Below the pieces are notes generated by a model, which was not told the origin of the DNA, ran no database searches, and saw only the letters and a program-made list of their open reading frames with translations. Shown here piece by piece: positions 283-22,632 of a stretch of 64,000 bases of DNA. This DNA is from Escherichia coli (GTDB lineage: Bacteria > Pseudomonadota > Gammaproteobacteria > Enterobacterales > Enterobacteriaceae). The first letter of the stretch is position 1. Each line of letters opens with the position of its first letter. Both the position numbers and the translations under genes were made by a program. The stretch is taken from the NCBI RefSeq assembly GCF_003334335.1, contig NZ_QOWQ01000008.1. One strand, written 5' to 3'.

Positions 283-2409
<2,127 letters not shown>

Positions 2410-15645: not shown

Positions 15646-15680
15646 GTGGCGCGTTACCTGGTAGCGCGCCATTTTGTTTC
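15646..15680 (+). terminator. Putative crp terminator
   Basis: tggcgcg ... gcgcgcca stem followed by ttttgttt; lies between crp stop and yhfK start. Confidence 0.55.
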
Positions 15681-17776
15681 CCCCGATGTGGCGCAGACTG
15701 ATTTATCACCCCGATATCAACTATGCACTTCGACAAACGCTGGTGCTATGTTTGCCCGTGGCCGTTGGGTTAATGCTTGGCGAATTACGATTCGGTCTGC
15801 TCTTCTCCCTCGTTCCTGCCTGTTGCAATATTGCGGGCCTTGATACGCCTCATAAACGTTTTTTCAAACGCTTAATCATTGGTGCGTCGCTGTTTGCCAC
15901 CTGTAGCTTGCTGACACAGCTACTACTGGCAAAAGATGTTCCCCTGCCCTTTTTGCTGACCGGATTAACGCTGGTACTTGGCGTCACTGCTGAGCTGGGG
16001 CCATTGCACGCAAAATTGCTTCCTGCATCGCTGCTCGCCGCCATTTTTACCCTCAGTTTGGCGGGATACATGCCGGTCTGGGAACCGTTGCTCATCTATG
16101 CGTTGGGCACTCTCTGGTACGGATTGTTTAACTGGTTTTGGTTCTGGATCTGGCGCGAACAACCGCTGCGCGAGTCACTAAGTCTGCTGTACCGTGAACT
16201 GGCAGATTATTGTGAAGCCAAATACAGCCTGCTTACCCAGCACACCGACCCTGAAAAAGCGCTGCCGCCGCTGCTGGTGCGCCAGCAAAAAGCGGTCGAT
16301 CTAATTACCCAGTGCTATCAGCAAATGCATATGCTTTCCGCGCAAAATAATACTGACTACAAGCGGATGCTGCGTATTTTCCAGGAGGCGCTGGATTTAC
16401 AGGAACATATTTCGGTCAGTTTGCATCAGCCGGAAGAGGTGCAAAAGCTGGTCGAGCGTAGCCATGCGGAAGAAGTTATCCGCTGGAATGCGCAAACCGT
16501 CGCCGCTCGCCTGCGCGTGCTGGCTGATGACATTCTTTACCATCGCCTGCCAACGCGTTTTACGATGGAAAAGCAAATTGGCGCACTGGAAAAAATCGCC
16601 CGCCAGCATCCGGATAATCCGGTTGGGCAATTCTGCTACTGGCATTTCAGCCGCATCGCCCGCGTGCTGCGCACCCAAAAACCGCTCTATGCCCGTGACT
16701 TACTGGCCGATAAACAGCGGCGAATGCCATTACTTCCGGCGCTGAAAAGTTATCTGTCACTAAAGTCTCCGGCGCTACGCAATGCCGGACGACTCAGTGT
16801 GATGTTAAGCGTTGCCAGCCTGATGGGCACCGCGCTGCATCTGCCGAAGTCGTACTGGATCCTGATGACGGTATTGCTGGTGACACAAAATGGCTATGGC
16901 GCAACCCGTCTGAGGATTGTGAATCGCTCCGTGGGAACCGTGGTCGGGTTAATCATTGCGGGCGTGGCGCTGCACTTTAAAATTCCCGAAGGTTACACCC
17001 TGACGTTGATGCTGATTACCACCCTCGCCAGCTACCTGATATTGCGCAAAAACTACGGCTGGGCGACGGTCGGTTTTACTATTACCGCAGTGTATACCCT
17101 GCAACTATTGTGGTTGAACGGCGAGCAATACATCCTTCCGCGTCTTATCGATACCATTATTGGTTGTTTAATTGCTTTCGGCGGTACTGTCTGGCTGTGG
17201 CCGCAGTGGCAGAGCGGGTTATTGCGTAAAAACGCCCATGATGCTTTAGAAGCCTATCAGGAAGCGATTCGCTTGATTCTTAGCGAGGATCCGCAACCTA
17301 CGCCACTGGCCTGGCAGCGAATGCGGGTAAATCAGGCACATAACACTCTGTATAACTCATTGAATCAGGCGATGCAGGAACCGGCGTTTAACAGCCATTA
17401 TCTGGCAGATATGAAACTGTGGGTAACGCACAGCCAGTTTATTGTTGAGCATATTAATGCCATGACCACGCTGGCGCGGGAACACCGGGCATTGCCACCT
17501 GAACTGGCACAAGAGTATTTACAGTCTTGTGAAATCGCCATTCAGCGTTGTCAGCAGCGACTGGAGTATGACGAACCGGGTAGTTCTGGCGATGCCAATA
17601 TCATGGATGCGCCGGAGATGCAGCCGCACGAAGGCGCGGCAGGTACGCTGGAGCAGCATTTACAGCGGGTTATTGGTCATCTGAACACCATGCACACCAT
17701 TTCGTCGATGGCATGGCGTCAGCGACCGCATCACGGGATTTGGCTGAGTCGCAAGTTGCGGGATTCGAAGGCGTAA
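15674..17776 (+). CDS. yhfK: Large inner-membrane protein YhfK (unknown function)
   Basis: 700-aa ORF, hydrophobic N-terminal half and repeated hydrophobic blocks after residue ~380. Confidence 0.88.
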   Translation: MFPPMWRRLIYHPDINYALRQTLVLCLPVAVGLMLGELRFGLLFSLVPACCNIAGLDTPHKRFFKRLIIGASLFATCSLLTQLLLAKDVPLPFLLTGLTLVLGVTAELGPLHAKLLPASLLAAIFTLSLAGYMPVWEPLLIYALGTLWYGLFNWFWFWIWREQPLRESLSLLYRELADYCEAKYSLLTQHTDPEKALPPLLVRQQKAVDLITQCYQQMHMLSAQNNTDYKRMLRIFQEALDLQEHISVSLHQPEEVQKLVERSHAEEVIRWNAQTVAARLRVLADDILYHRLPTRFTMEKQIGALEKIARQHPDNPVGQFCYWHFSRIARVLRTQKPLYARDLLADKQRRMPLLPALKSYLSLKSPALRNAGRLSVMLSVASLMGTALHLPKSYWILMTVLLVTQNGYGATRLRIVNRSVGTVVGLIIAGVALHFKIPEGYTLTLMLITTLASYLILRKNYGWATVGFTITAVYTLQLLWLNGEQYILPRLIDTIIGCLIAFGGTVWLWPQWQSGLLRKNAHDALEAYQEAIRLILSEDPQPTPLAWQRMRVNQAHNTLYNSLNQAMQEPAFNSHYLADMKLWVTHSQFIVEHINAMTTLAREHRALPPELAQEYLQSCEIAIQRCQQRLEYDEPGSSGDANIMDAPEMQPHEGAAGTLEQHLQRVIGHLNTMHTISSMAWRQRPHHGIWLSRKLRDSKA

Positions 17777-17842: not shown

Positions 17843-19078
<1,236 letters not shown>

Positions 19079-19091
19079 TTACGCATAAACA

Positions 19092-19131
19092 AATGTGAAA
19101 TTATAACCACAAAATATGCATAAAAAATCAC
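19092..19131 (-). promoter_or_regulatory. Possible tandem ARG-box-like operator upstream of argD
   Basis: AT-rich segments tgtgaaattataacca and tatgcataaaaaatca loosely resemble the TGAAT-w4-ATTCA ARG box; judged by eye only. Confidence 0.3.
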
Positions 19132-19148
19132 TAAATGGCAATCAGAAA

Positions 19149-19712
19149 TCAGCGATGCAGGAAATTAGCCAGCAGTTGATGTCCTTGTTCGCTAAGAATA
19201 CTTTCTGGATGGAACTGCACACCTTCCAGATCCCACTGGCGATGGCGAATCCCCATAATCTCGCGGGTTTCGCTCCAGGCCGTCACGTCAAAGCACGCTG
19301 GTAATGAGTCAGGTTCCACCACCAGCGAATGGTAGCGTGTCACGGTAAGTGGATTTGCCAGCCCCCGAAATACGCCCTCACCGTTATGTGTAATCGGCGA
19401 GGTTTTGCCGTGCATGACCTTTGCGGCGCGCACAACTTTACCGCCAAATGCCTGCGCCATTGCCTGATGACCGAGGCAGACGCCAAGAATCGGCAAGCGC
19501 CCGGCATAGTGGCGAATAACGTCAAGGGAGATCCCGGCTTCATCTGGCGTACAGGGGCCAGGTGAGATGACAATTTTTTGTGGTTTAAGGGCGTCGATAT
19601 CCGCCAGCGTCAACGCATCGTTGCGCTTAACCAGCACATCCGCCCCCAGTTCACAAAAGTACTGGTAGAGGTTCCAGGTAAAAGAATCGTAGTTATCTAT
19701 AAGCAGGATCAT
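19149..19712 (-). CDS. pabA: Aminodeoxychorismate synthase, glutamine amidotransferase subunit
   Basis: 187-aa [26 protein letters not shown]...GVCLGHQ (class I GATase). Confidence 0.95.
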
Positions 19713-19743
19713 GGCGGCTCCGGTACAAAAGAACCGCGCTATT

Positions 19744-20346
19744 TTACTCAGATTCCCCGGCTTCGCTTACCACTTTGCTAAATATCATCTGCAGTGCGGT
19801 GAGATCCCCCATTGCCCCACTCTGATTTGCCTGATTCCAGGCCTCTTTTTCGATACCCTGCCAGCTCAGTTGATATCCGGCATGAATCGCCAGTTGCTCG
19901 AAGAAGATCCGCTGTGCCAGACCACTTCCCACCCGGAAGGGATGCAGCACGTTGATTTCACAATAGTAATGCGCCAGCCGCTCGACGAACTTCGCTTTCT
20001 CCAGGCCAACCAGATAACCTTCTTCCTCCAGATCCTGCATCAGGGCATTGCCCTCTTTTTCGATATAAGCAAAGTGGCAGAACGGCGTATCACCCTGATA
20101 AATATCAACTTCACGCAGTTGCCCTGCCCAGTCGAAAATATCCTGATACAGCTGGCGATGGATAGTTCGCAAATGCGGTAAACCGCGCACCAGCGGACCA
20201 AGCTCAATGGTCGCAGCACGCAGCGCCGTCATTTCGTAAGCGGCCTGTTCCAGCCGCTGCTGCTGGCGGATGTTCAGCCGGTTACGCATGATATCAAGGC
20301 CTGGATAAAGATACGGATCGCGCCCTTCGCCGAATTTATCGCTCAT
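19744..20346 (-). CDS. fic: Fic-domain protein (putative AMP-transferase)
   Basis: 200-aa [27 protein letters not shown]; motif region reads [12 protein letters not shown] (residues 135-146). Confidence 0.92.
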
Positions 20347-20503
20347 AGTGACTCCTCAGCTCTTCAAGGCGCGCTAAAGCCTCTGCGGCAGTAAGAGTGA
20401 CTAAAGGCATCTCGACGCCTTCAAGACGGCGACTGGCCTGAAAATTACGATTACGCTGAAGCTCCCAGAGACGGGACTTTTGCTTATCGGTGAGTTTCTT
20501 CAC
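20336..20503 (-). CDS. yhfG: Small Fic-partner protein YhfG
   Basis: Manual translation from GTG (complement cac 20501-20503): [54 protein letters not shown]; stop overlaps fic start; below the 60-aa ORF-track cutoff. Confidence 0.8.
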
Positions 20504-20607
20504 TTGATGCCTCCCTGAACGTGTCCATTTGCCACAAGTATAAGCGGCAAATCCGGGTTACGCCGGGAGAGCAGAAGCGCGGGCAAGATTGCCCGCGCGA
20601 GAAATCA

Positions 20608-21189
<582 letters not shown>

Positions 21190-21450
21190 TTAACAAACAG
21201 AGCAGAAAAAAAGCAAGTGAAGAGATTCTAAATAGCCTTCAAGAACAAGGCCATCCCTTTACCTAATTTTACGTATCTGAAATATATGTAACCTGACGAT
21301 CACTTTTTATTCCGTGATCAAAATCACCTCTTAAAATGCAATTTAGCAACCGATTGCAATAAAACATTTAAACAGATCACAAAATCACCTAAAATCGCCC
21401 GCTCGCGGCATATCCCGCTATGCCATTTTATTTTTGAACGCAGGCCAATC

Positions 21451-22632
21451 ATGACTAACAGCAATCGCATCAAGCTCACATGGATTAGCTTTCTCTCCTA
21501 CGCACTGACTGGTGCGTTGGTTATTGTCACCGGGATGGTGATGGGAAATATCGCCGATTATTTCAATCTGCCTGTTTCCAGTATGAGTAATACCTTCACC
21601 TTCCTCAACGCCGGCATTTTAATCTCTATCTTCCTCAACGCCTGGCTGATGGAAATCGTCCCGTTGAAAACGCAGTTACGTTTTGGCTTTCTCCTGATGG
21701 TGCTGGCGGTTGCCGGTTTGATGTTCAGCCACAGCCTGGCGCTGTTCTCGGCGGCGATGTTCATTCTCGGGGTGGTCAGCGGCATCACCATGTCGATTGG
21801 TACATTCCTGGTAACACAAATGTATGAAGGGCGTCAGCGCGGTTCCCGCCTGTTATTTACCGACTCCTTCTTCAGTATGGCTGGGATGATTTTCCCAATG
21901 ATCGCCGCGTTTCTACTGGCGCGCAGCATTGAGTGGTACTGGGTTTATGCCTGCATCGGGCTGGTGTATGTCGCTATTTTTATTCTGACCTTCGGCTGTG
22001 AGTTCCCGGCGCTGGGCAAACATGCGCCAAAAACGGATGCTCCGGTAGAGAAAGAAAAGTGGGGGATCGGCGTACTGTTTCTCTCTGTTGCGGCGTTGTG
22101 CTACATCCTCGGTCAGTTAGGTTTTATCTCCTGGGTGCCTGAGTATGCCAAAGGCCTGGGCATGAGCCTGAACGACGCGGGCACGCTGGTGAGTAACTTC
22201 TGGATGTCATACATGGTCGGCATGTGGGCGTTCAGCTTTATTCTTCGCTTCTTTGATTTGCAACGCATTCTGACCGTACTGGCTGGTCTGGCTGCGATTC
22301 TGATGTACGTCTTTAACACCGGAACACCAGCACATATGGCGTGGTCAATTCTCGCTCTGGGCTTCTTCTCCAGCGCGATCTATACCACCATCATCACCCT
22401 GGGTTCACAGCAGACCAAAGTACCGTCGCCAAAACTGGTTAACTTTGTCCTGACCTGCGGAACCATCGGTACTATGTTGACCTTTGTGGTTACCGGCCCG
22501 ATCGTTGAACATAGCGGTCCGCAGGCGGCACTGCTTACAGCAAACGGTCTGTACGCTGTCGTCTTTGTGATGTGCTTCCTGTTAGGTTTCGTCAGCCGTC
22601 ACCGTCAGCATAACACCCTGACCTCTCATTAA
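21451..22632 (+). CDS. tsgA: MFS-type membrane transporter TsgA
   Basis: 393-aa polytopic [31 protein letters not shown]. Confidence 0.9.

Follow-up and report, generated by a model that had tools for sequence, protein, structure and literature searches.

The yhfG-fic gene pair in the window (the whole stretch of Escherichia coli DNA analysed, 64,000 nt) is EcFicA/EcFicT itself, not merely a look-alike, and we regard this identification, taken together with the gating of Fic by YhfG, as highly probable. YhfG carries a canonical inhibition motif that is nearly invariant among its homologues. Fic has a degenerate catalytic loop, and E. coli Fic most likely no longer AMPylates with ATP. The module, its complex, the inhibitory motif and the degenerate active site are already known, having been published between 2009 and 2016 with structures in the PDB. 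As a discovery, the pair is of no importance; Fic is the founding member of the FIC family, and the question of its substrate and target is four decades old. The residual interest of Fic is historical and biochemical, and the cause of the filamentation linked to it is likewise part of that interest. The near-invariant lock, the lost ATP residues, the purifying selection and the fixed link to pabA described below sharpen this old question and open no new one.

The yhfG-fic gene pair and its neighbours

Both open reading frames are found on the minus strand at the coordinates given by an earlier sequence-only reading, which also had the GTG start and the 55-aa length of YhfG right. The features of the pair and of the gene that follows it are:

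20336..20503, minus strand: yhfG (ecficA), an ORF with a GTG start, 55 aa; class I Fic antitoxin, or inhibitory-helix protein
19744..20346, minus strand: fic (ecficT), an ORF of 200 aa; class I FIC-domain protein, wild-type allele (G55)
20336..20346, minus strand: overlap of yhfG and fic, ATGAGCGATAA, 11 nt
20356..20352, minus strand: fic Shine-Dalgarno sequence AGGAG, 5 nt ahead of the fic ATG and within yhfG
20515..20510, minus strand: yhfG Shine-Dalgarno sequence GGGAGG, 6 nt ahead of the GTG
19713..19743, minus strand: fic-pabA spacer, 31 nt, carrying the pabA Shine-Dalgarno sequence GGAG
19149..19712, minus strand: pabA, aminodeoxychorismate synthase component 2 (NCBIfam PRK08007, 423.6 bits)

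In the raw sequence, the ATG of fic falls within the final codons of yhfG; the end of yhfG does share the start region of fic, as had been proposed, over the 11 nt of ATGAGCGATAA. The same reading placed fic 32 bp from pabA on the same strand, of which the strand is correct and the distance measures 31 nt. It also described the pair as lying downstream of pabA, and this has to be reversed, as yhfG-fic is upstream of pabA in the direction of transcription. ppiA (PRK10903) lies upstream of yhfG, and argD lies beyond pabA. An ORF antisense to fic (19711..20181, plus strand, 156 aa) was disregarded as a mechanical call without supporting evidence.

Next to argD, the window also contains a yhfK-like ORF of 700 aa for a FUSC-family membrane protein (15674..17776, plus strand, listed start TTG), and the gene corresponding to it at homologous loci has a Pfam FUSC match.

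Identification as EcFicA and EcFicT

YhfG matched Pfam PF10832 (YhfG; DUF2559) as a full-length family member (residues 2-55, E=5.4e-24) and NCBIfam PRK10204 with 126.9 bits against a cutoff of 77. Fic matched Pfam PF02661 (Fic/DOC) over residues 58-152 (E=1.5e-13), which places it among the FIC-domain proteins, and the NCBIfam equivalog PRK10347 ("putative adenosine monophosphate-protein transferase Fic") with 430 bits against a cutoff of 181. Among proteins of solved structure, YhfG is identical to 5jff_B, and Fic matched 5jfz_A/5jff_A with E about 1e-134, so that the window holds the same gene pair as EcFicT/EcFicA of E. coli K-12 (5JFF, 5JFZ). Several E. coli chromosomes match a 2.15-kb stretch of the locus at 100% identity, and every complete E. 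coli genome compared (5426 of 5426) contains it, its genes being annotated as fic, "YhfG family protein", pabA and ppiA.

Fic residue 27 (window 20266..20268, minus strand) is R27 in the window and H27 in the crystallised K-12 EcFicT; the other Fic differences from the 5JFF/5JFZ chains are engineered positions of the crystal constructs, and the window carries wild-type G55 and E28. R27/H27 is a natural polymorphism in helix 1, close to the interface with YhfG, and H27 is also present in database E. coli proteins such as P0004 and P0037.

A prediction of 2009 already counted Fic/Doc-YhfG among toxin-antitoxin systems (PMC2701414), and the pair was named ecficA/ecficT and characterised as a class I Fic module by Stanger, Harms, Dehio and Schirmer in 2016 (PMC5033356). 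The sequence-only description of a coupled, toxin/antitoxin-like Fic module is correct and matches these accounts (PMC2701414, PMC5033356). As in other class I FicTA modules, the inhibitory helix sits on a small protein of its own, whose gene directly precedes fic in the same operon. YhfG is small and basic as described, with a pI of 10.1 and 12 K+R versus 8 D+E residues, and its helical character is borne out by the crystal structure (PMC5033356).

A canonical inhibition motif in YhfG

The sequence-only reading saw no clean (S/T)xxxE(G/N) motif in YhfG, which is mistaken. A regular-expression scan found exactly one [ST]xxxE[GN] match, SRRLEG, at residues 24-29:

20417..20434, minus strand: codons for S24-R-R-L-E28-G29 (SRRLEG), the (S/T)xxxE(G/N) inhibition motif of YhfG

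Such a motif occurred in 3.8% of shuffled YhfG sequences. Among 120 YhfG homologues, 104 have SRRLEG and 9 more differ by single changes at x positions. Conservation across the 96 full-length homologues is 0.99 for S24, 0.99 for E28 and 0.96 for G29. TLTAAEA, which had been offered as the closest motif, falls in the variable part after the loop. An alignment of YhfG with the small upstream partners encoded beside three distant canonical Fic genes on unrelated contigs left R17, S24, E28 and G29 as the only invariant columns.

Direct phmmer comparison of YhfG with the PDB matched YhfG itself only, and AntF and VbhA came within reach only with a profile that included the distant FicA proteins. 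This profile found AntF (8wt0_B) with E=3.4e-13, AntF ASLRLEG aligning with the YhfG motif. Its match to VbhA was weak (E=0.22) but in exact register, ASRRLEG versus ASQRLEG.

These alignments agree with the published description of EcFicA, which "contains a canonical [S/T]xxxE[G/N] inhibition motif" (PMC5033356). YhfG and Fic form a stable 1:1 complex with a Tm of 63 degrees C and an interface of 1641 A2, in which S24 and E28 of YhfG bond to Fic R146, E28-R146 being a salt bridge in 5JFF, and YhfG R25 bonds to Fic T40 (PMC5033356). The contact between the partner's glutamate and R2 of the FIC motif that marks class I FicTA modules is thus present in the published structure (PMC5033356), and the mode of regulation, which had been called not obvious from sequence, can be read from a canonical motif whose S24 and E28 touch R146 in the crystal. 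Three checks had been suggested along with that reading, and their counterparts are in print (PMC5033356). Co-expression yields the stable 1:1 complex, and the structure places the YhfG glutamate at the active site. Uncoupling, in the form of the E28G change in YhfG, lowers the Tm of the complex by 10 degrees C and did not unmask AMP transfer. The 5JFZ_B chain carries this E28G change, a designed replacement of the inhibitory glutamate.

In the complex, YhfG wraps Fic through a large hydrophobic interface, and its helix 1 puts S24xxxE28G29 in the active site, where S24 and E28 grip R146, which is the second of the two FIC-motif arginines. In the canonical relatives VbhA/VbhT and AntF/Fic-1, the same lock stops productive ATP binding, and therefore blocks AMPylation of gyrase and topoisomerase IV.

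Three named systems were compared with YhfG-Fic. Fic-1/AntF of Pseudomonas bijieensis 2P24 (8WT0; PMC13327609) is likewise a class I Fic protein with a small upstream partner, and its numbering is the same as in E. coli (S24 and E28 in the partner, H135 and R146 in Fic). Apart from 5JFF/5JFZ, Fic-1 is the closest solved relative of EcFicT (170.9 bits, E=2.2e-49, residues 1-196). Fic-1 has a canonical HPFREGNGRAQR loop and AMPylates GyrB, and its complex with AntF is a deAMPylase (PMC13327609), whereas E. coli Fic differs from Fic-1 in having V139, S141, L143, A36 and Q29. VbhT/VbhA of Bartonella schoenbuchensis (3SHG, 3ZC7) is the prototype class I FicTA module, and VbhT matched Fic with E about 6e-33. 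VbhA has three helices and YhfG two, with an 8-residue deletion (PMC5033356). Unlike EcFicT, VbhT is encoded on a plasmid, bears a signal domain for type IV secretion and has been proven to AMPylate gyrase and topoisomerase IV. For Doc/Phd of phage P1, a sequence match to YhfG-Fic was not seen. Doc is an EF-Tu kinase with a different loop, and Phd is an unrelated antitoxin with a DNA-binding domain. In Doc/Phd, too, a toxin with the FIC fold is neutralised by a small helical protein whose gene lies upstream, as remarked in PMC5033356.

Promoter, hairpin and probable read-through into pabA

Two elements were located in the ppiA-yhfG spacer:

20537..20542, minus strand: TATACT, the -10 element of the sigma-S fic promoter, within the conserved block TTTGCYGCTTATACTTGTGG
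20577..20598, minus strand: GC-rich hairpin GCGCGGGC-AATCTT-GCCCGCGC, after the ppiA stop codon, read from the sequence

TATACT is tabulated as the -10 of the rpoS-dependent fic promoter, citing Utsumi 1993 (PMC5650638). When the window was compared with the homologous stretches of L003, L009, L010 and L011, the 20-nt block TTTGCYGCTTATACTTGTGG (window 20523..20555, minus strand) was found to be kept across five genera. The surrounding ppiA-yhfG spacer has diverged, except for this block and the GC-rich hairpin, in which the stem is conserved and the loops vary. A generic sigma-70 scan did not call the fic promoter, which was found instead through cross-genus conservation. TTTGCYGCTTATACTTGTGG runs about 8 nt upstream and 6 nt downstream of TATACT, a length that suggests an extra constraint, such as an extended -10 or a discriminator.

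The hairpin is a probable terminator, and would part ppiA from a yhfG-fic-pabA unit; an intrinsic-terminator scan did not call it, its T-run being weak. The same kind of scan found no terminator-like element in the fic-pabA spacer, and an Rfam search of 18900..21500 (E<=1) gave no match and no sign of a known RNA element. Because the spacing is short and a terminator-like element is absent between fic and pabA, transcription is likely to read through from fic into pabA. Co-transcription of fic and pabA was reportedly described by Tran et al. in 1990. YhfG and Fic are made from one transcript, behind a conserved sigma-S-type promoter, with pabA 31 nt further on.

Synteny, selection and origin of the module

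Leclercia, Salmonella, Klebsiella and Citrobacter share with E. coli the gene order tsgA-like MFS, ppiA, yhfG, fic, pabA, argD, and the 11-nt overlap is identical letter for letter in all four. The fic-pabA spacer measures 31-32 nt and is largely conserved across the five genera. In pairwise comparisons of E. coli with the four other genera, in which synonymous sites are near saturation, dN/dS was 0.05-0.10 for yhfG, 0.05-0.08 for fic and 0.05-0.08 for pabA. The values for yhfG and fic lie in the range of pabA, indicating that both genes are maintained by strong purifying selection.

Each of the three distant canonical FicT genes (37-45% identity, loop HPFREGNGRxxR) is preceded by a small gene that overlaps or abuts it and encodes SxxxEG; at locus L006 the overlap is 11 nt, in the same register as that of yhfG/fic. 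This shared partner indicates that the two-gene overlap is ancestral to class I FicTA modules. The neighbours of these loci are unrelated (HigB/HTH, QueH and AbiEii). Judging from these comparisons, it is specifically in the enterobacterial clade that the module became fixed beside pabA and the ATP site decayed, a conclusion also reached from synteny in PMC5033356. We infer that the module was domesticated in the E. coli clade, where it became part of the core genome as an operon that is inherited vertically and has a fixed place between ppiA and pabA.

Degenerate catalytic loop of Fic

The truly unusual feature of the pair, which the sequence-only reading missed, is the catalytic loop of Fic:

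19909..19944, minus strand: degenerate FIC signature loop from H135 to R146, the canonical form being HxFx[D/E]GNGRxxR

This loop fails the strict HxFx(D/E)GNGRxxR pattern, as D/E, N and R1 are replaced by V139, S141 and L143. In all 120 homologues of at least 79% identity, positions 139 and 143 (the latter that of R1) are hydrophobic and position 141 is S or N, and the canonical AMPylator signature is absent from every one of these 120 close homologues. A more distant set was made up of the best 150 representatives of 50%-identity clusters, 122 of which had a recognisable loop; that loop was fully canonical in 112 of them, and 7 of the 10 exceptions are close relatives or fragments of E. coli Fic.

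Column by column, 113 close and 112 canonical Fic sequences differ by clade-specific switches, E36 to A, F67 to Y, Y71 to F and D55 to G, at positions not used to select the two groups. Both groups retain H135, R138, R146 and, near the N-terminus, D10-P-Y12. This comparison is an independent reproduction of the "specificity-determining positions" in PMC5033356, whose authors propose a new substrate for the enlarged hydrophobic pocket of Fic.

As to G55 (window 20182..20184, minus strand), this residue is invariant in the 113 E. coli-type homologues. At position 55 of the 112 canonical FicT representatives, aspartate is found in 89, and glycine is not among the four commonest residues. The G55R change of the fic-1 allele, which causes filamentation, the sole reported phenotype (PMC5033356), hence hits a clade-specific position.

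In evolutionary terms, the Fic loop would have lost its Mg2+- and ATP-phosphate-binding residues (E139 to V/L/I, N141 to S and R143 to L/M/I, together with E36 to A as a coupled change) and kept the catalytic H135 and R146. With these residues gone, Fic would most likely be without ATP-dependent AMPylation.

Possible functions of the complex

A conventional type II toxin-antitoxin switch, in which free Fic AMPylates gyrase and topoisomerase IV and arrests growth, and labile YhfG is degraded to release Fic, would share its architecture, overlap and inhibitory motif with proven FicTA modules. The filamentation caused by fic-1 (G55R) fits this reading (PMC5033356), and so do two reviews that list EcFicT as growth-inhibiting or as a gyrase/topoisomerase IV AMPylase (PMC10886550, PMC8097203). 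The activity claims of these reviews, however, conflict with PMC5033356, and probably reflect confusion with YeFicT or PaFicT. The primary authors found neither auto- nor target-adenylylation by EcFicT, even with the inhibition motif mutated (E28G), and knock-outs are as viable as the wild type (PMC5033356). The loop lacks E/D139, N141 and R143, the binders of Mg2+ and of the ATP phosphates, and YhfG has no DNA-binding domain for autoregulation. In contrast to mobile toxin-antitoxin loci, yhfG-fic belongs to the core genome, keeps its synteny and is passed on vertically (also noted in PMC5033356), and the mobility and patchy distribution that are typical of type II systems, if not strictly defining, are not seen for it. 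The transcript data cited in PMC4963847 do not show an antitoxin-degradation signature for fic-yhfG. We consider such a switch very unlikely.

By analogy with Fic-1-AntF, the complex might instead be an active de-modifying hydrolase (deAMPylase-like) with YhfG E28 as a catalytic residue. The deAMPylase activity of Fic-1-AntF depends on AntF E28 (PMC13327609); E28, S24, H135 and R146 are near-invariant in the E. coli clade though the AMP-transfer residues are lost, and the YhfG-Fic complex is very stable (PMC5033356). The acidic cleft of Fic-1-AntF, however, uses E29, E36 and E139 of Fic-1, where E. coli Fic has Q29, A36 and V139, so that the two complexes are unlikely to share their metal- and charge-dependent chemistry, and no E. 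coli AMPylated substrate needing deAMPylation is known. This makes a deAMPylase-like complex highly improbable. An anti-phage defence module of the abortive-infection type is scarcely credible: Fic matches the PADLOC candidate family PDC-S04 (E=3.9e-75) and the distant FicTA locus L008 sits by an AbiEii gene, but the match is at domain-family level to a candidate, untested system, YhfG has no PADLOC match, the E. coli module is universal (5426/5426) in a fixed housekeeping context (ppiA, pabA, argD) and not in a variable island, and the degenerate catalytic loop of Fic also counts against it.

We favour a reading in which Fic is probably still an enzyme that acts on a different phosphate-containing substrate and a different target, with YhfG keeping it gated. 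It would remain a gated enzyme because the general base H135, the glycines of the anion-binding loop, R146 and the clade-specific pocket are invariant, and because the lock residues of YhfG are under the same constraint. On these patterns of conservation, a Fic that is still catalytic on a different substrate seems more likely than a pseudoenzyme. A more specific form of this reading, which we offer tentatively and hold to be rather unlikely, is that YhfG-Fic is no longer a toxin-antitoxin switch but a permanently assembled, two-subunit stationary-phase enzyme with a chemistry new to FIC proteins, possibly linked to p-aminobenzoate/folate through pabA. That chemistry could involve a non-ATP donor in the pocket formed by A36/Y67/F71/V139, or de-modification using YhfG E28.

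Fused and artefactual fic reading frames

Two apparent intermediates between the close and the distant Fic homologues were rejected. P0122 (68% identity) is a YhfG-Fic deletion fusion found on one short contig only, and P0129 (48% identity) comes from a contig, L002, that looks C-to-T converted and has no intact ORF; its apparent divergence is for this reason taken as an artefact. L002 (Logan SRR18107612) is almost devoid of intact ORFs, and its PabA-like ORF shows A to V, P to L/F and T to M changes; the contig resembles a genome assembly built from a library of bisulfite type, or from one deaminated in some other way.

In the 2.7-kb Logan ERR4228981 contig (L001), a single 200-aa ORF (1011..1613) lies between the ppiA and pabA homologues; in it, Fic from about residue 45 onwards continues in frame from the first ~35 residues of YhfG. 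Its motif has decayed to SSRLDI, and its loop is HPFFVGSGRAQR, with R1 kept. Two readings of L001 are conceivable: a deletion fusion that arose naturally and imitates the N-terminal inhibitory helix of class II Fic proteins, or a locus in decay. E. coli-type YhfG-Fic fusions also occur in Logan assemblies as P0001 (252 aa, 15 member sequences), which fits a 1-nt frameshift near the end of yhfG (…ELRVTMSDK…), and P0005 (233 aa), which fits an internal deletion. Both are probably assembly errors or pseudogenes, and they show how easily the overlap yields one ORF.
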